Shown here in pieces: positions 5,906 through 21,105 of a stretch of DNA of 64,000 bases. Position 1 is the first letter of the stretch. Every line of letters starts with the position of its first letter. The notes under the pieces are model-generated. The model ran no database searches, was not told where the DNA came from, and was given only the letters and a program-made list of their open reading frames with translations. The stretch comes from Escherichia coli. GTDB lineage: Bacteria; Pseudomonadota; Gammaproteobacteria; Enterobacterales; Enterobacteriaceae. Location: assembly GCF_965641715.1 (NCBI RefSeq), contig NZ_OZ282453.1; one strand, 5' to 3'. Position numbers and translations under genes: made by a program.

Positions 5906-7132
5906 ATGGGAATTAACGAAATCATCATGTACATCATGATGTTCTTTATGCTGATAGCTGCCGTAGACAGGATCCTGTCGCAGTTCGGCGGTTCTGCTCG
6001 TTTCCTCGGTAAGTTCGGTAAAAGTATCGAAGGATCAGGCGGTCAGTTCGAAGAAGGCTTTATGGCAATGGGCGCACTGGGCCTGGCGATGGTCGGTATG
6101 ACCGCGCTGGCACCGGTACTGGCTCACGTTCTCGGGCCGGTAATTATTCCGGTTTACGAAATGCTCGGCGCTAACCCATCGATGTTCGCCGGAACACTGC
6201 TGGCGTGCGATATGGGCGGCTTCTTCCTCGCCAAAGAGCTGGCGGGCGGCGACGTAGCCGCGTGGCTATACTCTGGGTTAATTCTCGGGTCGATGATGGG
6301 GCCAACGATTGTGTTTTCCATTCCGGTGGCGCTCGGCATTATCGAACCTTCTGACCGTCGTTATCTGGCGCTCGGCGTGCTGGCGGGCATTGTGACCATT
6401 CCGATTGGTTGTATCGCTGGTGGTCTGGTTGCTATGTACTCCGGTGTTCAGATCAACGGCCAGCCGGTGGAATTCACTTTCGCCCTGATCCTGATGAACA
6501 TGATCCCGGTGATCATTGTTGCGATTCTGGTGGCGCTGGGGCTGAAATTCATCCCAGAAAAAATGATCAACGGCTTCCAGATCTTCGCCAAATTCCTCGT
6601 TGCATTGATCACCCTCGGTCTTGCCGCTGCGGTAGTGAAATTCCTGCTTGGCTGGGAACTGATCCCCGGTCTGGATCCTATCTTTATGGCCCCTGGCGAT
6701 AAACCCGGTGAGGTGATGCGCGCCATTGAAGTTATCGGTTCTATCTCCTGCGTTCTGTTAGGGGCGTATCCGATGGTGCTGCTGCTGACCCGCTGGTTTG
6801 AAAAACCGCTGATGAGCGTCGGTAAAGTGCTGAATATGAACAACATCGCGGCAGCCGGCATGGTGGCAACGCTTGCCAACAACATCCCGATGTTCGGCAT
6901 GATGAAGCAGATGGATACCCGCGGCAAAGTCATCAACTGCGCCTTCGCCGTTTCCGCTGCTTTCGCCCTGGGCGACCACTTAGGCTTCGCCGCTGCCAAC
7001 ATGAATGCCATGATCTTCCCGATGATTGTCGGCAAGTTGATCGGCGGCGTAACGGCGATTGGCGTGGCGATGATGCTGGTGCCAAAAGACGACGCGACCG
7101 CGGCTAAAACCGAAGCGGAGGCACAATCGTGA
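5906..7132 (+). CDS. eutH: Ethanolamine permease EutH (408 aa)
   Basis: Polytopic membrane protein translation, expected length and position. Confidence 0.9.
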   Translation: MGINEIIMYIMMFFMLIAAVDRILSQFGGSARFLGKFGKSIEGSGGQFEEGFMAMGALGLAMVGMTALAPVLAHVLGPVIIPVYEMLGANPSMFAGTLLACDMGGFFLAKELAGGDVAAWLYSGLILGSMMGPTIVFSIPVALGIIEPSDRRYLALGVLAGIVTIPIGCIAGGLVAMYSGVQINGQPVEFTFALILMNMIPVIIVAILVALGLKFIPEKMINGFQIFAKFLVALITLGLAAAVVKFLLGWELIPGLDPIFMAPGDKPGEVMRAIEVIGSISCVLLGAYPMVLLLTRWFEKPLMSVGKVLNMNNIAAAGMVATLANNIPMFGMMKQMDTRGKVINCAFAVSAAFALGDHLGFAAANMNAMIFPMIVGKLIGGVTAIGVAMMLVPKDDATAAKTEAEAQS

Positions 7133-8532
7133 ACACTCGCCAGCTACTGAGCGTCGGTATCGATATCGGCACCACCACCACCCAGGTGATTTTCTCCCAC
7201 CTGGAACTGGTTAACCGTGCGGCGGTGTCGCAGGTGCCGCGCTACGAATTCATCAAACGCGAAATTAGCTGGCAAAGCCCGGTGTTCTTTACCCCTGTCG
7301 ATAAACAGGGTGGTTTAAAAGAAGCGGAACTGAAATCGCTGATTTTAGAGCAATATCAGGCTGCGGGCATTGCGCCGGAAAGCGTTGATTCTGGTGCCAT
7401 CATCATCACCGGTGAAAGCGCGAAAACCCGCAATGCTCGCCCGGCGGTGATGGCGCTCTCTCAGTCGCTGGGCGATTTTGTCGTCGCCAGCGCCGGGCCG
7501 CACCTCGAATCCGTGATCGCCGGTCACGGTGCCGGGGCGCAAACCCTTTCTGAACAACGGCTGTGTCGGGTACTGAATATCGACATCGGCGGTGGCACCG
7601 CGAACTACGCCCTGTTCGATGCCGGAAAAATCAGCGGCACTGCCTGCCTCAACGTCGGTGGTCGCCTGCTGGAAACCGACAGCCAGGGGCGCGTGGTTTA
7701 CGCTCATAAACCGGGGCAGATGATTGTGGATGAGTGCTTCGGCGCAGGCACCGATGCCCGTTCGCTGACCGGCGCGCAGCTGGTGCAGGTTACCCGGCGG
7801 ATGGCAGAGCTGATTGTCGAAGTGATTGACGGAACGCTTTCGCCGCTCGCGCAGGCATTAATGCAAACCGGTTTGCTGCCCGCAGGTGTTACGCCCGAAA
7901 TCATTACGCTTTCTGGCGGCGTGGGCGAATGTTATCGCCACCAGCCCGCCGACCCGTTCTGTTTTGCCGATATTGGCCCGCTTCTGGCAACGGCGCTGCA
8001 TGACCATCCGCGCCTGCGTGAGATGAACGTGCAGTTTCCGGCGCAAACCGTGCGCGCCACGGTGATTGGTGCGGGTGCACATACCCTTTCGCTCTCTGGC
8101 AGCACAATCTGGCTGGAGGGCGTACAACTGCCGCTGCGCAATTTGCCGGTGGCGATCCCAATTGATGAAACGGATCTGGTGGGTGCCTGGCAACAGGCGC
8201 TGATTCAGCTGGATCTTGATCCCAAAACTGACGCGTACGTGCTGGCGCTTCCCGCCTCGCTGCCTGTGCGTTACGCCGCGGTACTGACGGTCATCAACGC
8301 GTTGGTCGATTTCGTCGCGCGTTTTCCGAATCCGAATCCCCTGCTGGTGGTGGCCGGGCAGGACTTTGGTAAAGCTCTGGGCATGTTGTTGCGCCCACAG
8401 CTACAACAACTCCCGTTGGCAGTCATTGACGAAGTGATTGTCCGCGCGGGGGACTATATCGACATTGGTACGCCTCTTTTTGGCGGATCGGTTGTGCCGG
8501 TGACGGTGAAATCACTCGCATTTCCTTCCTGA
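7129..8532 (+). CDS. eutA: Ethanolamine ammonia-lyase reactivating factor EutA (467 aa)
   Basis: Translation recognised as EutA; 4-nt overlap with eutH stop. Confidence 0.9.
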   Translation: MNTRQLLSVGIDIGTTTTQVIFSHLELVNRAAVSQVPRYEFIKREISWQSPVFFTPVDKQGGLKEAELKSLILEQYQAAGIAPESVDSGAIIITGESAKTRNARPAVMALSQSLGDFVVASAGPHLESVIAGHGAGAQTLSEQRLCRVLNIDIGGGTANYALFDAGKISGTACLNVGGRLLETDSQGRVVYAHKPGQMIVDECFGAGTDARSLTGAQLVQVTRRMAELIVEVIDGTLSPLAQALMQTGLLPAGVTPEIITLSGGVGECYRHQPADPFCFADIGPLLATALHDHPRLREMNVQFPAQTVRATVIGAGAHTLSLSGSTIWLEGVQLPLRNLPVAIPIDETDLVGAWQQALIQLDLDPKTDAYVLALPASLPVRYAAVLTVINALVDFVARFPNPNPLLVVAGQDFGKALGMLLRPQLQQLPLAVIDEVIVRAGDYIDIGTPLFGGSVVPVTVKSLAFPS

Positions 8533-8655: not shown

Positions 8656-9309
8656 TCACTCAGGGAACAAGTTGATTTGAAGCAAACTGCCAATGTATTT
8701 ACCAGTGCTTTTAATTTTTCGCTTTGATGGCTTACACGAATTCAGGTTGACACCAGCCTGGCTAGATATTGGCTTGTATTGCCGCTCCGCCAGTACGATC
8801 AGGTCTGCCGCGTCTTTTAGCTTTCCATCGTTAGCCAGTTCCAATGCTCGATCCGCCATTTGCCCGCATTGTTGAATCAGCTTAAGTTGCGATACCTCCA
8901 GTCGCAATTGCTGGATTCGTTCTACCACTTTCGCCCTAATGCGCTTAGTTTCACGCATTCCCATTCTTAATGCCTGGTTGCCAGTAAGTGAGTAAACCTC
9001 TTTTTCTTTCCTGAAGTTTGCGGCTTTACCGTCAGCTTGGACGCGCATTTTATGCGCTTCCAAGAATTCGCCCTCCAATTCATCCCTGATCTTCGCGTTG
9101 AATCTGTCGTTCTTGAGTTCATTTAACCCTTCCGCCTTGCGGATCTGGTTGATTAACTCCAACAATTCATCACTGCGGATACGCCACTCGCTATCAACCT
9201 GTACCAAGTCAAACATGTTGTTGCTCCCGTTTTGCTGCCATAGGGCAACGGCTCGCCAGCCTTTATCACCTCCTTTAGTTGTTGCGATTCTTAACTGAAT
9301 GGTTATCAA
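8656..9309 (-). CDS. Hypothetical island protein, charged/coiled-coil-rich (217 aa as ORF; likely start at internal ATG 9216, 186 aa)
   Basis: ORF translation; GGGAG-type RBS upstream of internal ATG at 9216; no domain recognised. Confidence 0.45.
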   Translation of the reverse strand: MITIQLRIATTKGGDKGWRAVALWQQNGSNNMFDLVQVDSEWRIRSDELLELINQIRKAEGLNELKNDRFNAKIRDELEGEFLEAHKMRVQADGKAANFRKEKEVYSLTGNQALRMGMRETKRIRAKVVERIQQLRLEVSQLKLIQQCGQMADRALELANDGKLKDAADLIVLAERQYKPISSQAGVNLNSCKPSKRKIKSTGKYIGSLLQINLFPE

Positions 9310-9380
9310 AACGCTGCGTTAATATCATTGATATGTATCAAATTTGTTTTGTGACGCGACAATGCCTTGTGAATATCAAT

Positions 9381-9404
9381 AAAAAACCCAGCGCTATGGC
9401 TGGG
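9381..9404 (-). terminator. Intrinsic terminator-like hairpin downstream of HTH-protein gene
   Basis: aaaaaa-CCCAGC-gctatg-GCTGGG on plus strand, i.e. hairpin followed by T6 on minus strand. Confidence 0.45.
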
Positions 9405-9437
9405 CTTCGTTTAATGAGATGGGATTGAAAGCGGGTT

Positions 9438-10220
9438 TTATTTATCTCCCAGATTGTATTCCCAGTTGGGAAGTAAAGTTATCAGCTTGTCACCTTTCTT
9501 GCCTTTGCCGATCTGGTTGCCGTTCTCGTCTTTCTTGTGTGTGATTTCCTGGTCAACCTTAATCAATCCTCTCTCTTTGGCTTGCTCAATCAGTCGGTAG
9601 AATGCGCCGTTACTAATCGGCTTCCGGTTACCGTCGTTATCCATCGCAGTGATTTTCTGTTGCAGTCCGGCGTTATTGCCCAGGTATTCGCCACCTAACG
9701 CCGCCAGTACCTGACACAACATGCCGACACTGTATTTTTTCGGATTTGGGTTAATCCATTCTTTAGCTCCCATCTCTTTTTTGTCGTTGGGCGCTTGTTC
9801 TGCTGCTACTGCGTTCACCTTTTCATCTCCCATCTTGTTACCGCTTGCTGTGCGCTTAATTTCTTCCAGTTCTCTCTCAAGCTCACCTATACGTAATTCA
9901 CGCTCGATAATTACCCCGCGCAGCACATCATCATCACCGTGAGGGCTTGCCTGAATCCAGTTACCATTGGCGAGCGGTAGGAGGGCATAAATTCCGAACA
10001 GGTCACAAAGCGCGGCAAGTGTATTAAAATCAGGTTCCCGGCGTCCCTCCATCCAGTGGCTAACAGCGCCTTTTGTGACTGGTTCGCCTTTCTTGCTTTT
10101 AACACCCATGCGATCCAGTGCGGCGGCTATCTCTTCGCATTTAATGCCACGACCGCCAGCATAGCCCGCCGCTTTCGCGGCCCCTTTGAGGATGTCGTGA
10201 ATTTTCATTTCGTAACTCAT
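9438..10220 (-). CDS. Putative HTH (XRE-like) DNA-binding protein with uncharacterised C-terminal domain (260 aa from second ATG)
   Basis: Helix-turn-helix-like segment ...EEIAAALDRMGVKSKKGEPVTKGAVSHWMEG...; GGGAGA RBS 8 nt upstream of ATG at 10220. Confidence 0.55.
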   Translation of the reverse strand: MSYEMKIHDILKGAAKAAGYAGGRGIKCEEIAAALDRMGVKSKKGEPVTKGAVSHWMEGRREPDFNTLAALCDLFGIYALLPLANGNWIQASPHGDDDVLRGVIIERELRIGELERELEEIKRTASGNKMGDEKVNAVAAEQAPNDKKEMGAKEWINPNPKKYSVGMLCQVLAALGGEYLGNNAGLQQKITAMDNDGNRKPISNGAFYRLIEQAKERGLIKVDQEITHKKDENGNQIGKGKKGDKLITLLPNWEYNLGDK

Positions 10221-10226
10221 AATTTT

Positions 10227-10257
10227 ATCTCCCATCTCATGAACTATGGTGGGAGAT
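10227..10257. promoter_or_regulatory. Inverted repeat ATCTCCCA-N15-TGGGAGAT overlapping RBS/start of the HTH gene (candidate operator)
   Basis: Arms at 10227-10234 and 10250-10257 seen directly in sequence; the left arm coincides with the RBS/first-codon sequence, so arm identity may be partly coding-driven; function inferred. Confidence 0.3.
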
Positions 10258-11356: not shown

Positions 11357-13723
11357 TCAACGTCTGCGCGGCTGCAAAATTCCTCCGGGTCGTTGTGATT
11401 CACGCTGCATCAGTCGCATCGCTGTGTTTTCTATGGTCTGCTGCAGCGCTTTTGAGTCTTCCTCTGTCCAGCCGTTGTTAGCCTGGATGTTGAACGTATT
11501 GTTCATCGTGATTCCGCCACCGCCTACCAGATCGCGGCCCGGTGTAACTCGTCCACCTTCACCCGGGATCATGTACTGTTTCCCGCCAGTGGATGTAAAT
11601 AGCTCCGGTACTCCGTGCTCCCCGACCCTATAAAGATTGCCACCGTTAACAGCCCCGCCGTTGTAACGAGCGCCAGCCAGTCCAAGCGTTTTGGCGGCAG
11701 CTACGCCAGTAGTAAGCCCGGTAAGTCCAGTGGCCCCAGCGCCGCCCATCGTGGCTACGTTAGCCAGGTATGCAGGAGTGGCCCACGCCGATCCTAATGC
11801 TGTAGCCTCTGCTAGTGCTTTAGCTGTTGCGGCTGCGTTTGCGGCTTCACCAATTAGCTGCTGTTTAACCCACTCAGCACCCATCTGGACAATGCCACCG
11901 ACCACAGAAGACAGGATCGTACTGCCAACGTTGGCAAGTGACTCTTGCAGCGATTGAGTACCGTTTATCAGTCCGGTAAATGCGCTGCCAGCGCCAGACG
12001 ATAACCCATCGACCATATTCCCGATGAGGCCATTTATATCGCTTTGTTTCTTCCACTGCTGCCACTGGAGATCCAGAACCCTTTGTTCATGTGCGATCTC
12101 TTCCTGGCGCAACTGCTCTTCGGTAGCCCCAAGATCTAGAAGCATTTGCTTGCGAACAGCCCATTCATTTTGGATCTTCTGTATTGGGTCAATCTGAGCT
12201 TTCTGCTTATCCTGCTCACTGACAAGACTGTCCCATTTCGCTTTCTGCTTGCGGATGGCTTCAGCTTCATCAATTGCTGCGAGTGTACTTGCTCGCTGTT
12301 TCGCGCTGATCAACCGTTTCTGCTCAGCCGCTTCCAGGTCTTCTACTGCTTTTTTCCGTTTATTGAGCGCCGCTAGTTCGGGATCGTATTTTTCCACCAA
12401 TGAAAGGCCGCTTGCTTCCTTACGTTCGCGTTCTCTTTGTGCCTGTTTGGCTGCCTGCTTAGCGGCGTTTTCTGCTTGTTTGGCTGCTCTTTCTTTCGCC
12501 CTGGTGTTCTCTTCTTCCTTGCGCTTATTCTCTTCTAACTCCTTGTTTTGTTCGCGTAATTTAACGATTTCCTCATGATGCGCCTTTGTCAGCTGGCCTT
12601 CTTTCAGTGCCCGATCTATATCAGCGTTTGCGTTGCCTTTTAGCTGTTCCTGTTTAACTTGCAGATGTTTAATCATCATTTCGCCAGTGGCAATCGCTGC
12701 CGCAGACGCTCCAGCATTCAGAGCTTCATTTAACGCTCTCTGACGTTCTTCTGCTGTTAATGCCTCGTTGCTGTATCGAAGTAGCGCATCAACGTATTTC
12801 TCCAGTTCTGCGCGGCCTGCCGCAGTTGCTGGTTCCATTGCTTTTAGGATGCTCAGAAGGCTTTGCGCTTCATAGGAAGACGGGTTTTTGCGGAACTGCG
12901 CCATAGCGTTATAAAGCGCCATAGCTTCACCCTCTGTGATTCTGTACTTAGCTCCCAGCCCTTCAATGACCGCTGATAACTGTTTGCCAAGCGCTGCACC
13001 GAATGCGCCTTCCTTGCTTAATTTGTTGAGCACTTCACTCAGTGAATTTCCTGACACGCCCAGCGCGTCGAGTTCTCTTGCTACCGTTCCCAGGTCGCCG
13101 CCTTTCATCCATCCTGCATTAGAAAATTCAGTGATAGCCCGGCCCGCTTCCCGCGTTTCTTCCTGGAGTGTTTTTAGCGCCCGCACGGCCTGCTCTTTCA
13201 TTACGGCGGCGGCAATGGCGTTGTTCTGTGTGGCTTCGTAATATGAATCACTGAAAGCGTTAACGCCCTGGGTGGATTTGCCGATCACGGCGTCGATTGA
13301 TGCTAATGCCTCCTTCATCCTTTCAGCGCTATCCGTTGCGTCGTCCATGCTGTCCGTTAGGCTGTTGGCAATCGCCCCGCCAATAGCCATCACCGCCCCC
13401 ATGACCGCACCGCCAGTACCGAAGGCAGCGGCAAGTTGTGCACCCTGCACAGCGAACGCCTGGAGCGCATTACCGCCCATCTGCAATTGAGTGGCAAGGT
13501 CTGCGATCTGGTATGATGCGTTACGGATTGCCGGGGAAAGGTTGGTTTTGACTGCGGCAGACGTTTTGGTCATCTGCGTGTTCAGTTTTTTGACGCCACT
13601 GTCAGCGCGTTTTGCGCCGCGTTCTATACTGTCAAAAGCCTGGTCCGCTTCTTGTTGTGCTGCCAGGAGTTTACCAGTACGGGCGTCGACCTCATAGTAT
13701 ATGGTCCCAAGATTCCCACTCAT
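11357..13723 (-). CDS. Phage tail tape-measure-like protein (788 aa)
   Basis: Long Ala/Gly/Gln-rich coiled-coil protein; C-terminal motif ...GGNLYRVGEHGVPELFTSTGGKQYMIPG... resembles the conserved C-terminal block of siphovirus tape-measure proteins. Confidence 0.6.
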   Translation of the reverse strand: MSGNLGTIYYEVDARTGKLLAAQQEADQAFDSIERGAKRADSGVKKLNTQMTKTSAAVKTNLSPAIRNASYQIADLATQLQMGGNALQAFAVQGAQLAAAFGTGGAVMGAVMAIGGAIANSLTDSMDDATDSAERMKEALASIDAVIGKSTQGVNAFSDSYYEATQNNAIAAAVMKEQAVRALKTLQEETREAGRAITEFSNAGWMKGGDLGTVARELDALGVSGNSLSEVLNKLSKEGAFGAALGKQLSAVIEGLGAKYRITEGEAMALYNAMAQFRKNPSSYEAQSLLSILKAMEPATAAGRAELEKYVDALLRYSNEALTAEERQRALNEALNAGASAAAIATGEMMIKHLQVKQEQLKGNANADIDRALKEGQLTKAHHEEIVKLREQNKELEENKRKEEENTRAKERAAKQAENAAKQAAKQAQRERERKEASGLSLVEKYDPELAALNKRKKAVEDLEAAEQKRLISAKQRASTLAAIDEAEAIRKQKAKWDSLVSEQDKQKAQIDPIQKIQNEWAVRKQMLLDLGATEEQLRQEEIAHEQRVLDLQWQQWKKQSDINGLIGNMVDGLSSGAGSAFTGLINGTQSLQESLANVGSTILSSVVGGIVQMGAEWVKQQLIGEAANAAATAKALAEATALGSAWATPAYLANVATMGGAGATGLTGLTTGVAAAKTLGLAGARYNGGAVNGGNLYRVGEHGVPELFTSTGGKQYMIPGEGGRVTPGRDLVGGGGITMNNTFNIQANNGWTEEDSKALQQTIENTAMRLMQRESQRPGGILQPRRR

Positions 13724-15801: not shown

Positions 15802-15993
15802 TCATTGGTGGCGAGCGCCTTTGTTTTTATAGAATTCCAAAATCTCAGATCGGATAAACTTAATTCTTGAGCCAATCGGACTGACCGGGACGGGCCAGCC
15901 TTTAATCTTGTTCATCCACCGGAATATTGTCCGACGGGTAACGCCGAATAAAGCTGCTACCTCGTTAACCGTCATTAATTCGCTATCATTCAT
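15802..15993 (-). CDS. AlpA/excisionase-family small HTH regulator (63 aa)
   Basis: Translation ...MTVNEVAALFGVTRRTIFRWMNK... matches AlpA-type prophage regulators; typical partner of P4-type integrases. Confidence 0.6.
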   Translation of the reverse strand: MNDSELMTVNEVAALFGVTRRTIFRWMNKIKGWPVPVSPIGSRIKFIRSEILEFYKNKGARHQ

Positions 15994-16280
15994 GTTCTCA
16001 CCTCAAAAAGTAGCGGTGAGGAAAATATGGAGAAAACCCTCACCGCGCCCTGAATGAAATTAAAGACCAACATTACTGTTGATACTTATTATTATATTCC
16101 TCCTGTCCCTGTTTCACATCTTTTACCATATAGTGAAAGGGGATATTCTGTAATGTTTACAAAACTTTTAATTAGCAAAAAATAATTGCGCATCTCACGT
16201 AATGCAGGGATAATATTACTCAAGGGCTGGTTGCCCTTACTCAAAATGTGATCTATAACTACAACGATCTATTTCACTTC

Positions 16281-16307
16281 CCCGCTTTCTCCGGCGGGAT
16301 TTTTTTG
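16281..16307 (+). terminator. Plus-strand intrinsic terminator-like hairpin within 600-bp noncoding stretch
   Basis: cccgc-tttctccg-gcggg followed by a ttttttt. Confidence 0.4.
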
Positions 16308-17122
16308 CCTGCAATCTGGCACCATTGCGCACATTAAAATTAGATGCCATTTAAAAGCGATATAACGCGTTCTGCCGGGCTTAATTTTGGCTATCCACTT
16401 GGAAGGGTAAGCCTGTTTTGATTCGTCTGGCGTGGAATGGTGCGGCGGTAATATCAGATCTCAGCGTTCTGCGTGGTGGGATGAAATAGCCTGGCAGGAT
16501 TTGCGTGTGGTTTGCTCTCCCAAAAAATGGGGTAATGGCGCTGGCTGGATGGCAGGACTCCGCGCTGATTACTGGATGGCTGAAAATTTAATGAAATCGC
16601 ATCAATTTTAATGCGTCTAAATCGCTCTGTGGCGACGTGAAGTTTTCAGGTAAGCAAGTGTAGCTGTGTGGTGTGTTCATCGCGTTACTGGCACCATTCC
16701 GTTCGAATTTGGCGCTATCAGGATGGTTTGCGGTGGTCGGCGGCGGGGATAAACTTGCTTGAGTGGTCACCTCAGCCTGCTGTGCGTCGTGTGATGGTAC
16801 TGTCTGCACCTGGCTATACGCTGCTTTGCTGCTGTTTCCTGTCTGGTCTGTATACGCGATAAAACCCATCGGCTTTACAGTGAGTGAGTTTTTTGCGCTT
16901 TGCTTTCCATTCGGTTTGCTTACTGCTGCTGTGTGTCTGTGCGGTAGCTCAGAAAGCTGTCGATGATAACCATCACTGCCAGACCGTCTTTTGAGCTGGC
17001 GATTGCTCGAAGTCTTCCGAAGGTCCGCTGGGCTTGTTGCTTGTTTGTGTTCTTTTAAAATGCGCGCCTCTTACTTTCTCTTAAAAAGAAAAAAGGAATA
17101 TACAGATCTCATACTATGTGTG

Positions 17123-17273
17123 TCCCAAATGTCACACGTCATGGCCTGACCTGTATCCCAAATGTCACACGTCACCCTCTGACCTGTATCCCAAATGTCA
17201 CACGTACCTGTGTCCCAAATGTCACACGTCTATTGTTAATTAATTGTTGACCTGTGTCTCAAATGTCACACGT
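17123..17273. repeat. Iteron array: five direct copies of TCCCAAATGTCACACGT (fifth TCTCAAATGTCACACGT)
   Basis: Copies start 17123, 17156, 17189, 17213, 17257; AT-rich block tattgttaattaattgttga between copies 4 and 5. Confidence 0.65.
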
Positions 17274-17338
17274 CTGTTGATGGTTTAAGTAATAAAAAGG
17301 GCCACCATTTTAGGTGACCCATTGATGCGTTTTAGTCG

Positions 17339-18103
17339 TTATCTTGCGTTCTCGACCTGAAAAAGCATTCTGTATTTTCTTGCGTGCTGACCAATAACAT
17401 ATTCCCCGTATGGCTCAATGAGTCCTAACTCAACCAGGATTTTCATCTGGCGAATTACGGTGCGGCGATTCATGCCCCATTCATCAGCTATTTTTGCCTG
17501 GCAAACTTCAGATACATAAGATCCATCATTCTGCTTTCTTGCTGCTGATGCAATGCTGGATAATACGCTCCAGGCTGTAGCTTTAGCTTTATTCTCGCAA
17601 CCACTTCTGACAAATGCCTTACGTGCCGCACCCAAACAGACATAACTGCAATAAATTCCTTTTTCTTCCGTTTGGTATTGTGTCTCTTTATCCTGCATGG
17701 CTTCCGGTTCTTCCGGCGCTTCCTGCTGTGGTGCTGTCTGCGAAGTTTTAGCGGCCATACTGCGTAGCTCGTTCACGATATCAGTAGCTGATTTCTTCTC
17801 GCTTTTAGTTTCCTGCGTGACTGATAAATACTCACCTTGTAACGCCAGGAAGTCAGCGCGGGCGTTTGCCTGGCTTTGTTCTGGTGATTCAGGTTCTGCA
17901 TCGGCAGGTGATGAAATCGGTGATACACGCGCCCAGCCTGTTTTGGCGTTGCATTCCCAGCGATAACCATTAAAGCGGATATCATTCAGGCCATCATCAA
18001 TGGCGCTCCGTACTTCTTCCGGGATCGCGTCGATTTTCTGAAGGCTGTGTTTACCGAGTGATTCGCCTTGCCGTGGGGCGTAGGCGGTTGGTAAAATATT
18101 CAT
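17339..18103 (-). CDS. Putative winged-HTH DNA-binding protein, candidate replication initiator or regulator (254 aa)
   Basis: C-terminal HTH-like segment ...GMNRRTVIRQMKILVELGLIE...; perfect AAGGAGA RBS; iterons immediately 3' of gene. Confidence 0.5.
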   Translation of the reverse strand: MNILPTAYAPRQGESLGKHSLQKIDAIPEEVRSAIDDGLNDIRFNGYRWECNAKTGWARVSPISSPADAEPESPEQSQANARADFLALQGEYLSVTQETKSEKKSATDIVNELRSMAAKTSQTAPQQEAPEEPEAMQDKETQYQTEEKGIYCSYVCLGAARKAFVRSGCENKAKATAWSVLSSIASAARKQNDGSYVSEVCQAKIADEWGMNRRTVIRQMKILVELGLIEPYGEYVIGQHARKYRMLFQVENAR

Positions 18104-18349
18104 GTGGGATTTCTCCTTTTTACTTGTTTCCCATATCGCCCGGATTGGTTAGCGGCCTTCCGGGCTTTTTGTTGCGTTGATCCTATTTTCGATCCCCGGA
18201 TTTTTTATTACAAACTTGGCTTAATCATTGATTTTATTGGTATAGCTGTATAAAAGGATAACAGGATAAAAGGGTGATAGATTGTGTAACCTGTTAACCT
18301 TTTATACCAGTAAGGCGAAAGAAAAGCCGGACGAATCCGGCCTTATAGT

Positions 18350-19555
18350 TCACGGCTCCAGCGGATTACCGCCACCAGCCAATATCTGGTCGATGGCGTC
18401 GCTGTAGTCCTGCATCATGGCCCGCCGTTGCTTCAGATAGGCCGCCTGGTTATAAACGCCGCGCACACCTTTCGGAACGTGGGCCAGTTGGATTTCGATC
18501 CAGTCTGGTGAGTATCTGCCGTACTCGTTAAGTGCGGTTGAAAAGGTGGTTCGCCAGCCGTGACCAGTGGCTATCGACTTGTATCCGATACGCTCCAGGG
18601 CTTTAAGGATGGCACTGGCTGAAAGTGGCTTATCCATGAATCGACCAGGGAACACAAAAGCACTGTATCCGCTGCGGGTAAACTGGTCCTGTAATAGCTC
18701 GACCGCCTGCCGGGATAGCGGGACCACATGCGGGCGGCGGGCCTTCATGACTTCAGCGGGTAGGGTGATGGTTGCCGATTCCAGATCTACCCACTCCCAG
18801 CGCATTAAACGCAGTTCTGCGGTCCTTAGGGCGCTTAATATAAGCAAACGTATTGCCGTCTGAATCTGAACGCTCCCGGCTCTCTCAAGGGCTTTGTAGA
18901 AGGCCGGGATTTCGTTAATTTGTATCCATGCGTTATGGCCTGGGCGTCGGGCTTTCAATGCCGTGTCCAGATCTGCAACCGGATTTCGGTTAACCAGTTC
19001 AGTGATAACGGCAAATTTGAAGATTTCCCCTATACGCTGCCGTAATTTTCGGGCCTGTTCCGGCGCGGTGCGCTCTTTCTTCTGAAGCAATGCCAGCACG
19101 TCACGGGCCGTTATATCGACAATCGACCGCTTGCCAAGTACCGGATAAACATCTTTCTCCAGTGCCGATCTAACTTGTTTCGTGTAAGACTCAGACCAAC
19201 CGCTCACTCTGGTAGCAAACCAGTCTTCCGCTACCGTCTTAAAACTTGCCGCCATGTTGAGCGCATCAATGGCTTTCTCCTTGCGCGCTTCTTCCATTGG
19301 GTCAATTCCCTGGGCGATGAGTAAACGGCTCTCTGTGGCGCGTTTACGTGCTTCCTTCAAGGTAATCAGCGGATATACCCCAATAGCCTGTAACCGCTCT
19401 TTCTTGTCTATCCAGTACCGGAATCGCCAGTATTTGCTGCCATTGGGATGTACCAGCAAGAACAGGCCAGGTGTCTGTGAATCGGTGAGTTTGTAGGGCT
19501 TGTCCTTCGGCTGGGCGGCCTCTATGCCCTTTGCTGTCAGTGGTGTCTTGCTCAA
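18350..19555 (-). CDS. Tyrosine-type site-specific integrase, P4-like family (401 aa, TTG start)
   Basis: Translation ...GLFLLVHPNGSKYWRFRYWIDKKERLQAIGVYP... typical N-terminal arm-binding region of P4-type integrases; located at island edge. Confidence 0.85.
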   Translation of the reverse strand: MSKTPLTAKGIEAAQPKDKPYKLTDSQTPGLFLLVHPNGSKYWRFRYWIDKKERLQAIGVYPLITLKEARKRATESRLLIAQGIDPMEEARKEKAIDALNMAASFKTVAEDWFATRVSGWSESYTKQVRSALEKDVYPVLGKRSIVDITARDVLALLQKKERTAPEQARKLRQRIGEIFKFAVITELVNRNPVADLDTALKARRPGHNAWIQINEIPAFYKALERAGSVQIQTAIRLLILSALRTAELRLMRWEWVDLESATITLPAEVMKARRPHVVPLSRQAVELLQDQFTRSGYSAFVFPGRFMDKPLSASAILKALERIGYKSIATGHGWRTTFSTALNEYGRYSPDWIEIQLAHVPKGVRGVYNQAAYLKQRRAMMQDYSDAIDQILAGGGNPLEP

Positions 19556-19743
19556 AACCGGATACCTCGATCTAACGACTCGATAACCCCGCTCATGTAT
19601 CCGTCGCGTTCGGTTGCGTTCGGCAGGATAAGTAACGGGCGTATTAAGTGGAACACCTTACAGGACAAGGGATAACGATGAAATAGAATTGTTCGAATGC
19701 TGTGAAAAATGTTACTCATCACTTCTTCCTGAGGGAACGACTT

Positions 19744-21105
19744 ATGAAACTAAAGACCACATTGTTCGGCAATGTATATCAGTTTAAGGATGTAAAAGAG
19801 GTGCTGGCTAAAGCCAACGAACTGCGTTCGGGGGATGTGCTGGCGGGCGTCGCAGCGGCAAGCTCACAGGAGCGCGTGGCGGCAAAGCAGGTGTTGTCGG
19901 AAATGACCGTAGCGGACATCCGCAATAATCCGGTGATTGCCTATGAAGATGACTGCGTGACGCGGCTGATTCAGGACGATGTTAACGAAACGGCCTACAA
20001 CCAGATTAAAAACTGGAGCATCAGCGAACTGCGTGAGTATGTGCTGAGCGATGAAACCAGCGTGGACGACATTGCCTTTACCCGCAAAGGGCTGACCTCG
20101 GAAGTGGTCGCGGCGGTAGCGAAGATTTGCTCCAACGCGGACCTGATCTACGGCGCGAAGAAAATGCCGGTAATCAAAAAGGCCAATACCACCATCGGTA
20201 TTCCGGGCACCTTTAGCGCCCGTTTGCAGCCAAATGACACCCGTGACGACGTGCAAAGTATCGCCGCGCAAATCTACGAAGGGCTTTCCTTCGGGGTGGG
20301 CGATGCGGTGATCGGCGTCAACCCGGTAACTGACGATGTGGAAAACTTAAGCCGCGTGCTGGATACCATTTATGGCGTGATCGACAAATTCAACATCCCA
20401 ACTCAGGGCTGCGTACTGGCGCACGTCACCACCCAGATCGAAGCGATTCGTCGCGGCGCGCCTGGCGGACTGATTTTCCAGAGTATCTGTGGCAGCGAAA
20501 AAGGGCTGAAAGAGTTTGGCGTGGAACTGGCGATGCTCGACGAAGCGCGCGCAGTGGGCGCAGAGTTCAACCGTATCGCCGGGGAAAACTGCCTCTACTT
20601 CGAAACCGGACAAGGCTCTGCGCTATCCGCTGGCGCTAACTTCGGCGCTGACCAGGTGACGATGGAAGCACGTAACTATGGGCTGGCGCGTCATTACGAT
20701 CCGTTTATCGTCAACACCGTGGTCGGTTTTATTGGGCCGGAGTATCTCTACAACGACCGCCAGATTATCCGTGCTGGCTTAGAAGATCACTTTATGGGCA
20801 AGCTGAGCGGCATCTCTATGGGCTGTGACTGCTGTTACACCAACCACGCTGACGCTGACCAGAACCTCAACGAAAACCTGATGATCCTGCTCGCCACCGC
20901 AGGCTGCAACTACATCATGGGGATGCCGTTGGGCGATGACATCATGCTCAACTACCAGACCACCGCCTTCCACGACACTGCCACTGTGCGTCAGTTACTC
21001 AACCTGCGCCCGTCACCGGAGTTTGAACGCTGGCTGGAAAGCATGGGCATTATGGCAAACGGTCGCCTGACCAAACGGGCGGGCGATCCGTCACTGTTCT
21101 TCTGA
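19744..21105 (+). CDS. eutB: Ethanolamine ammonia-lyase large subunit EutB (453 aa)
   Basis: Translation recognised; start at ATG 19744 (MKLKTTLFG...). Confidence 0.9.
   Translation: MKLKTTLFGNVYQFKDVKEVLAKANELRSGDVLAGVAAASSQERVAAKQVLSEMTVADIRNNPVIAYEDDCVTRLIQDDVNETAYNQIKNWSISELREYVLSDETSVDDIAFTRKGLTSEVVAAVAKICSNADLIYGAKKMPVIKKANTTIGIPGTFSARLQPNDTRDDVQSIAAQIYEGLSFGVGDAVIGVNPVTDDVENLSRVLDTIYGVIDKFNIPTQGCVLAHVTTQIEAIRRGAPGGLIFQSICGSEKGLKEFGVELAMLDEARAVGAEFNRIAGENCLYFETGQGSALSAGANFGADQVTMEARNYGLARHYDPFIVNTVVGFIGPEYLYNDRQIIRAGLEDHFMGKLSGISMGCDCCYTNHADADQNLNENLMILLATAGCNYIMGMPLGDDIMLNYQTTAFHDTATVRQLLNLRPSPEFERWLESMGIMANGRLTKRAGDPSLFF

Follow-up and report, generated by a model that had tools for sequence, protein, structure and literature searches.

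The island and its repeat array

The window analysed here is a stretch of 64,000 nucleotides from Escherichia coli (contig NZ_OZ282453.1 of NCBI RefSeq assembly GCF_965641715.1), and our subject is a gene within it for a 254-aa protein, together with the array of five direct repeats that lies on the 3' side of that gene in the gene's orientation. Both belong to an island, an insertion of ~11 kb between eutA (7129-8532) and eutB (19702-21105) that takes up ~8.6-19.6 kb of the window. The island genes are all on the minus strand and follow one another, from the eutB side, as an integrase gene, the 254-aa gene with its repeats, ~1.1 kb without a conserved open reading frame (ORF), an AlpA-type gene, several orphan genes, a 788-aa tape-measure-like gene, a helix-turn-helix (HTH) gene and an anti-repressor-like gene. 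An earlier note on this DNA had proposed that the gene and the repeats are a replication initiator and its cognate origin, and on the strength of sequence comparisons we lean towards reading them as a Rep-iteron origin cassette that would serve as the replication module of the island. The features with which we are mainly concerned are as follows:

17339-18103, minus strand: gene of the 254-aa putative initiator, with an ATG start and AAGGAG 9 nt upstream
17299-17320, minus strand: rho-independent terminator belonging to the 254-aa gene, with the form GGGTCACC-loop-GGTGGCCC and then TTTTT
17119-17279, minus strand: array of five direct repeats (iterons), core in gene orientation ACGTGTGACATTTGGGA
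17123-17139, 17156-17172, 17189-17205, 17213-17229 and 17257-17273: the iteron cores, copies in the same orientation
17231-17250: AT-rich spacer inside the array, tattgttaattaattgttga, absent in most relatives
17040-17118: AT-rich tract on the distal side of the array, up to 75% AT against 51% island-wide
16890-17026: core of non-coding block A, which extends to ~16580 in some lineages
18068-18172, plus strand: candidate ~70-nt antisense (counter-transcript) RNA, with a promoter, two hairpins and a U-run ending near 18172

The window contains TCCCAAATGTCACACGT in five direct copies, at 17123, 17156, 17189, 17213 and 17257, the first four being perfect and the fifth having one mismatch, and they are spaced by 33/33/24/44 bp. 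A scan of the 64-kb window returned 0 further matches at three or fewer mismatches, and five copies, as opposed to the 0.19 expected, were reached in 0 of 100 shuffles; there is no second set of iteron sites anywhere in the window. The full repeating unit exceeds 17 nt and is approximately CCTGTRTCCCAAATGTCACACGTC. Copy number, mismatch and spacing are exactly what the earlier note had described, the AT-rich block that it placed between copies 4 and 5 is present, and its ORF with a good ribosome-binding site is a real gene, as judged from the start codon, the AAGGAG and purifying selection. It was also right to place the array 3' of the ORF, although it overlooked the terminator that stands between the stop codon and the repeats, equivalents of which occur in L003 and L004, two of the related loci introduced below.

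Among near-identical islands (the window, L009, L010 and L011) the arrays have four, five, five or six iterons. The arrays differ by units of 33 bp, and by the 44-bp unit with the AT-rich spacer in it, that have been gained or lost, a sign that recombination inside the array is frequent. The 44-bp unit is present in the window and in strain Z142-6 and is missing from most close relatives, and because most relatives manage without it the AT-rich spacer must be dispensable.

Winged-helix classes and their repeats

In 12 of 12 related loci the order is integrase, gene, terminator and direct-repeat array, with all repeats in the same orientation, and each class of C-terminal winged helix has a repeat sequence of its own:

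Window and L012: same winged-helix class; repeat TCCCAAATGTCACACGT, five copies in the window
L004: protein 70% identical to that of the window; repeat ACCCCTGACACCAGAAACAGGGGT, spaced 45/24/33/33, as in the window
L003 and L014: 55% identical to the window protein; repeat AACTCGTTATCATTCTGAGCAC, six copies, after which come three AT-rich 14-16-nt repeats
L005: 53% identical to the window protein; repeat AGACCCCCACCAAAAATTGGCTAC, two copies
L006, L007 and L013: different winged-helix class; repeat CACCCCCACCAAATTTGGGCTAC, three to four copies
L008: different winged-helix class; repeat ACCCTACCCCAAAATGACCT, five copies
K-12 yffL: distant member; repeat GGTGGGTCAAAAGTTGCCGTTA, four copies

The rule "same C-terminus, same repeat" was used as a forecast for three loci before they were inspected, and it held for all three. 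P0004, with a C-terminus of the window type, is followed by the window iteron; P0010, which combines a full-length N-terminus with a P0030-type C-terminus, is followed by the L006 iteron; and P0009, which has a P0012-type C-terminus and is located at the eut site rather than at the site near lysP and cirA, is followed by the L003 iteron. The pairing of C-terminus and iteron holds, in other words, across different attachment sites and different N-terminal forms. From the co-variation and the three successful forecasts we conclude that winged helix and array move as one specificity cassette, and we take this as strong, though indirect, grounds for thinking that the repeats are bound by the protein.

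Three parts make up the 254-aa protein: a conserved orphan N-terminal region (residues ~1-125), a linker that is acidic and disordered, and at the C-terminus a variable winged helix (~150-254). In the family alignment the first ~125 aa are nearly invariant, the linker is variable and acidic, and there are several classes of winged helix that are very unlike one another. The gene is under purifying selection, with dN/dS values for the N-terminal region of 0.13-0.24 at dS of up to 0.6, and because of these values we attribute the invariance of the N-terminal region to selection and not to recent exchange; its first codons may be invariant because they also encode a candidate antisense promoter on the opposite strand. 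When the N-terminal 137 aa were compared by HMMER with 1.84 billion representative proteins there were just 13 matches, of which 11 were family members or fragments of them and the other two were weak, multi-stretch matches to proteins of ~1,000-1,270 aa, so that the region is an orphan whose relatives give no pointer to a partner. Shorter forms of the protein (166-193 aa; P0030, P0033, P0037 and P0041, from loci L006-L008) are common, in which residues ~17-95, including the predicted beta domain, are gone; what is left comprises the initial ~14 residues, the KSEKKSAxDIVNELRSKAAAK helix, the linker and the winged helix, and iteron arrays accompany these forms as well. The family is essentially limited to E. 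coli and, with the yffL type excluded, occurs in ~100 of 5,426 complete E. coli genomes, always as a single chromosomal copy.

The C-terminal HTH recognised by the earlier note is borne out by a match of the window protein to Pfam HTH_36 (8.8e-5) and by AlphaFold2, which predicts a winged helix at ~150-250 with confidence and, with moderate confidence, a small beta domain at ~29-62, the remainder being disordered. The model has one winged helix, not two, and the protein has no primase or helicase domain. HTH_36 is matched by 14 of 18 family members, at best with 9.6e-10, and the other Pfam match is HTH_Crp_2; both are generic models. NCBIfam gave only a sub-threshold ArsR match for the 254-aa protein.

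More specific indications of kinship came from phage and plasmid proteins. The PHROG matches of five C-terminal classes are nearly all to replication initiation proteins, O-like or DnaD-like, with E values down to 1.6e-9 and alignments that cover the DNA-binding ends of the initiator profiles; there was one marginal MarR match (3e-3). A tblastn search of plasmids led to a 2,569-bp Salmonella MOBV plasmid that encodes only a relaxase and a 213-aa protein. The latter is annotated as RepL and matches Pfam RepL (6.5e-7) and HTH_36, and homologues of it are the sole gene on plasmids down to 1.2 kb. Comparison of the family profile with this plasmid RepL by hhalign gave 89.6% (E 1.9e-6), BLASTP of P0033 against it gave 2e-9, and hhalign of the family with P1 RepL gave 70.8% (E 3.8e-5). 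A PDB sequence search with the family profile had a best match of only E 0.04. Because the homology is limited to the winged helix, and both the Pfam RepL model and the domain order fail, we call the protein RepL-like and do not consider it a member of the RepL family.

Could the protein instead be a master regulator, comparable to Stl/Rpr or to a phage repressor, with the repeats as its operators? In such an immunity module the variable winged helix and its operators would account for lineage immunity, and the conserved N-terminus would sense a common inducer such as a helper-phage protein. A variable DNA-binding domain joined to a conserved second domain suits repressors too, the gene's location beside int and upstream of the alpA operon is one frequently taken by repressors, some iteron types have internal dyads (for example CCAAATTTGG in L006), MarR and ArsR regulators are among the structural neighbours of the winged helix, and the island is without replication enzymes. 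In addition, a weak promoter-like site (9/12 match) overlaps the last iteron of the window. Against this, the profile matches are to replication initiators, with the MarR match alone and marginal, the winged helix is related to that of RepL, and the four to six same-orientation repeats are found past a terminator instead of surrounding a promoter. In L004 and L006 the arrays have no conserved promoter after them, and in L003 the matches derive from the repeat itself; in some lineages cargo genes on the opposite strand also part the array from alpA. For these two reasons the repeats are badly placed to be operators of the alpA operon. Furthermore, Gram-negative phage-inducible chromosomal islands (PICIs) depend for their control on the activator AlpA, and a master repressor has not been described for them (PMC6092414). 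The operator alternative, which the earlier note had itself raised, is accordingly weakened; we consider it unlikely, and it stays the main rival to an initiator with its cognate iterons.

Non-coding DNA around the array and the rest of the island

The AT-rich tract at 17040-17118 directly abuts the array and is invariant among close relatives, which makes it, rather than the spacer within the array, our candidate for an unwinding region; the AT-rich repeats that come after the arrays of L003 and L014 are analogous to it. Block A, which lies immediately past this tract, keeps ~90-95% identity between lineages with different initiator genes and iterons and is more conserved than the synonymous sites of the neighbouring gene (dS of the initiator genes is ~0.5, and the iterons are unrelated). 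A remnant of it persists at the start of K-12 yffM, and it is absent from L004 and L005, which retain arrays. Several explanations for block A were tried and rejected: as a structured RNA it gave fold z-scores of +0.16 and -0.45 and no Rfam match; as a cos or pac site of a helper phage it had no phage homologue, its sole plasmid match being a copy of the K-12 yffM remnant; and as a coding region it has only one ORF (93 aa), which is not conserved. Block A may be a part of the origin or an independent cis element.

The conservation of block A bears on a further question, which is whether the array is the origin at all or, instead, a copy-control or incompatibility locus that acts by titration or handcuffing, like P1 incA or F incC. 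The origin would then be in the AT-rich tract and block A or, as with P1 repL, inside the gene. Phage P1 offers precedents for both arrangements, having nine RepA iterons (incA) directly 3' of repA with oriR upstream (annotation) and oriL inside repL (annotation; PMC9948254), and an iteron number that is freely polymorphic between four and six would be more tolerable at a control locus than at an origin. However, the window has a single cluster of sites and no second set, the array abuts an AT-rich tract as arrays do in origins, and L004 and L005 keep their arrays though they are without block A. We therefore think a pure control locus decidedly improbable, more so than a repressor with its operators.

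Another feature of the replicon type, if our prediction is correct, is the candidate antisense RNA. Its promoter (18068-18097) has a -35 element TTGCCG, an 18-nt spacer and an extended -10 element TGgTAAAAT. The complementarity of the candidate RNA to the 254-aa gene takes in the Shine-Dalgarno sequence and the start codon, with the anti-Shine-Dalgarno CUCCUU in the loop of hairpin 1, and the predicted fold of the RNA, at -24.4 kcal/mol (z -3.62), was equalled in 0 of 200 shuffles, the sense strand being weaker at -19.2 kcal/mol. The candidate is conserved in nine loci, with compensatory changes at four pairs, a level reached by 0 of 500 shuffles, and its G-U pairs favour the plus strand. There is no Rfam family for it and, since a scan of the whole island at E values up to 1 had no match, both it and block A are outside the known RNA families. 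A candidate antisense RNA over a ribosome-binding site would be a replicon-like trait, as in the copy control of plasmids.

Two other non-coding features were observed nearby. Block B (15990-16438), a second conserved non-coding block, is situated immediately upstream of the alpA-type gene, shows 85-88% identity with its counterparts in L003 and L007, and holds a strong terminator-like hairpin on the plus strand (16281-16298; CCCGCTTTCTCCGGCGGG followed by a T-run); it probably contains the alpA regulatory region. The DNA that separates the integrase terminator from the promoter region of the 254-aa gene contains a 21-nt inverted repeat (18248-18307) whose arms are 90% complementary and enclose a loop of 18 nt, and just downstream of it are two GATC sites (~18185-18205). 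The window and L004 have this inverted repeat, L003 and L006 have unrelated sequence in its place, and since it does not co-vary with winged-helix class it is not the autoregulatory site of the protein.

The module is flanked by the following features:

18350-19555, minus strand: P4-type tyrosine integrase (intZ-like) of 401 aa, NCBIfam integrase domain 1e-74, which abuts eutB and marks the right end of the island
18311-18341, minus strand: terminator of the integrase gene, a hairpin (GCCGGATTCGTCCGGC) with a T-run after it, unchanged in five lineages, K-12 among them
15802-15993, minus strand: AlpA/excisionase-type HTH gene, the next conserved island gene, outside the module

The integrase is annotated as intZ in near-identical genomes. 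No direct repeats of at least 10 nt that could be attachment sites were present at the island ends in the ranges searched, and one relative of the island occupies a second attachment site. Further along, the 788-aa protein (11357-13723, minus strand) matches the tail tape-measure family phrog_1538 from end to end (8e-112), and no tail or head gene other than its own can be recognised in the 11-kb island. Relatives encode tape-measure-like proteins of 725-728 aa, and some also have a gene for a small Sf6-terminase-like (TerS-like) protein. These observations suggest a satellite that either brings a tape measure of its own or employs it against a helper phage. At its far end (8656-10235, minus strand) the island encodes a 217-aa protein with weak PHROG matches to anti-repressors (Ant-like), labelled GrpE by PGAP in a near-identical genome, and a 265-aa protein with an N-terminal HTH, either of which could have a part in helper-phage sensing.

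The occurrence of a terminase-like gene in relatives raises the question of whether the repeats might be a centromere-like or a packaging site (pac- or cosB-like) to which the winged-helix protein binds. Direct-repeat arrays are also bound by terminase small subunits and partition adaptors, and one of the structural neighbours of our protein, TubR, is a winged-helix protein that binds centromeres. However, no partition NTPase is found among the island proteins, the TerS-like protein of the relatives has a gene of its own, the sequence relatives of the 254-aa protein are initiators, and no phage sequence resembles the array or block A. We judge this explanation very improbable, the least likely of those considered here.

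A proposed replication module and its relation to known systems

If the gene and its array are indeed an origin cassette, how might it function? We propose that the RepL/HTH_36-like winged helix at the C-terminus of the protein would bind the iterons past the gene's own terminator, as the co-variation suggests; that the bound protein would open the adjacent AT-rich tract at 17040-17118; and that the N-terminal region and acidic linker would recruit the helicase and primase of the host or of a helper phage. Recruitment from outside is proposed because the island encodes neither enzyme. Synthesis of the protein would probably be throttled by the predicted ~70-nt antisense RNA over the ribosome-binding site. 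The winged helix and the iteron array would be inherited jointly and swapped between islands as a specificity cassette, and such exchange would prevent cross-talk among co-resident elements. The initiator would then consist of little beyond a swappable origin-binding domain and a conserved orphan region that presumably recruits a foreign replisome, a variant of the iteron Rep-ori theme, and the island of ~11 kb would be an integrative and probably phage-dependent element, an intact relative of the cryptic prophage CPZ-55 of E. coli K-12.

As regards the earlier note, its central proposal of an initiator with a cognate iteron origin is the best supported of the readings, given the co-variation in 12 loci, the kinship with RepL and phage initiators, and the antisense candidate. 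A considerable number of observations nevertheless weigh against an origin cassette. With regard to the protein, neither Pfam RepL nor Rep_3 is matched by the window protein or by any of the 18 family members; its winged helix is at residues ~150-254, compared with ~47-110 in the plasmid RepL and 51-105 in P1 RepL, and at the opposite end from that of lambda O, which is N-terminal; relationships to lambda O (hhalign and BLASTP) and to P4 alpha (hhalign) were looked for and rejected, there being no homology; and Foldseek searches of PDB and BFVD returned generic winged helices (MarR, CodY, TubR, ArsR), so that structure searches cannot separate initiators from regulators. With regard to the DNA, most relatives do not have the spacer between copies 4 and 5 that had been suggested as the place of melting; no DnaA box (TTWTNCACA, one mismatch or fewer) occurs near the array, the only two matches being ~1 kb off at 16017 and 16110; no match to the consensus for integration host factor (IHF) was detected in 15991-17400; and no iteron-like half-sites were found at the 254-aa gene's own promoter. 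No helicase, primase or loader gene is present among the island proteins, and the iterons that lie directly 3' of repA in P1 (incA) are a copy-control locus and not an origin (annotation). Lastly, CPZ-55 in K-12 had no extrachromosomal activity in a mobilome study (bioRxiv 10.1101/2024.07.17.603846), the K-12 copy being a degraded one.

Our search for literature on this island family, or on yffL or intZ as parts of a satellite, returned nothing relevant. It is possible, although we suggest it more tentatively than the replication module as such, that CPZ-55-type islands are an undescribed satellite-like family of E. coli which would have a minimal "adaptor" initiator (a RepL-like winged helix and iteron cassette plus an orphan N-terminus that hijacks a helicase or loader), a plasmid-style antisense RNA, block A as a new cis-acting part of the origin, and YffL as a decayed initiator. 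Were these proposals correct, a function could be given to an uncharacterised E. coli family that includes K-12 yffL, and to the long-known and unexplained CPZ-55; an initiator architecture without helicase and primase would join the replication strategies of integrative satellites; and there would be at least seven natural orthogonal protein-iteron pairs with one common effector region, useful for studying both the evolution of origin specificity and the recruitment of replisomes by small mobile elements. If the protein is instead a repressor, the same pairs would be a set of orthogonal regulators.

A relative among described elements is CPZ-55 (intZ, yffL-yffS), which shares the eutA/eutB insertion site and the intZ integrase, and whose yffL is a diverged member of the family with four iterons of its own and the block A remnant. 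Excision of CPZ-55 from K-12 is only rare (PMC3105296). The 6.8-kb K-12 copy differs in being a deleted relative that has lost alpA and its neighbours, with yffM as a 3' gene remnant, and in that YffL is without the conserved N-terminal region. We consider yffM to be an apparent deletion product because its beginning is inside the remnant of block A and its end resembles the C-terminus of the 121-aa ORF of the window. The annotated start of yffL (in L002, NC_000913.3 2560257-2561613, with yffL and yffM) appears to fall in the homologue of the family's 5' UTR hairpin, and an alternative start, MSDMLAVEQ with AAAGGAG ahead of it, aligns with the start codon of the family.

Rep-ori modules have been shown experimentally in Gram-negative PICIs (PMC6092414) and in PIMEs (bioRxiv 10.64898/2026.01.12.698999). 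With these elements (SaPIs and EcCICFT073 among the PICIs) our island has in common an integrase, alpA, unidirectional genes, iterons and AT-rich DNA immediately 3' of the initiator, and an initiator specificity matched to the iteron sequence, here by co-variation. It has the integrase at its end, the alpA gene, the unidirectional gene order, the size of ~10-15 kb and the specific attachment site by which Gram-negative PICIs are recognised. The layout is thus that of the SaPI/PICI analogy drawn in the earlier note, but the analogy does not extend to the pri-rep primase/helicase domain, which neither the 254-aa nor any other island protein has, to the AT-rich block within the array in most relatives, or to DnaA boxes near it. 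Other differences from PICIs are that the gene is between int and alpA and not after alpA, that two iteron sets flanking an AT-rich region occur in only some copies, and that the initiator sequence is unrelated to P4 alpha. Because the pri-rep enzyme, a defining feature, is missing we have not classed the island as a PICI.

Iteron plasmids (P1 RepA with oriR-incA, F RepE, R6K pi, pSC101 RepA and RK2 TrfA) have same-orientation tandem repeats of 17-24 bp at a spacing of ~22-33 bp beside rep and AT-rich DNA, much as we observe, and arrays 3' of rep also occur among them, such as P1 incA. Their initiators, however, have the WH1-WH2 Rep_3 fold, whereas ours has a single winged helix with a small beta domain and disorder; here there is neither a DnaA box near the array nor an autoregulatory half-iteron at the promoter, and control is apparently by the predicted antisense RNA and not by autorepression. 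Lambda O and ori-lambda offer a different parallel, in that an initiator that has a winged helix, a flexible linker and a second domain for recruiting partners (recruitment, and action at the iterons, being our proposals for the present protein) acts at four to six iterons, some with internal dyads, beside AT-rich DNA, and the PHROG matches include O-like proteins. The parallel does not extend to detectable homology or to domain order, which is reversed; the putative origin is outside the gene, and there is no P-like loader gene.

The putative initiator itself can be compared with the RepL family of the small enterobacterial and Firmicute RepL plasmids and of P1 RepL/oriL. The HTH_36-type winged helices are homologous, and in both cases the protein is small, without enzymatic domains and dependent on host replication proteins (for the present protein, by our proposal). 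RepL-driven replication of P1 needs an AT-rich element and not DnaA or IHF sites (PMC9948254), an independence that parallels the absence of such sites near the window array. The differences are that our protein has no Pfam RepL match and carries its winged helix at the C-terminus, behind an orphan N-terminus and an acidic linker; that oriL is inside repL, while the putative origin here is an external iteron array 3' of the gene; and that the module, as opposed to those of RepL plasmids and P1, is integrated in the chromosome beside an integrase. Most likely the gene and its array are a compact module for self-replication, a Rep protein with its iterons, of a general kind that is already known, and with an initiator protein that is unusual.

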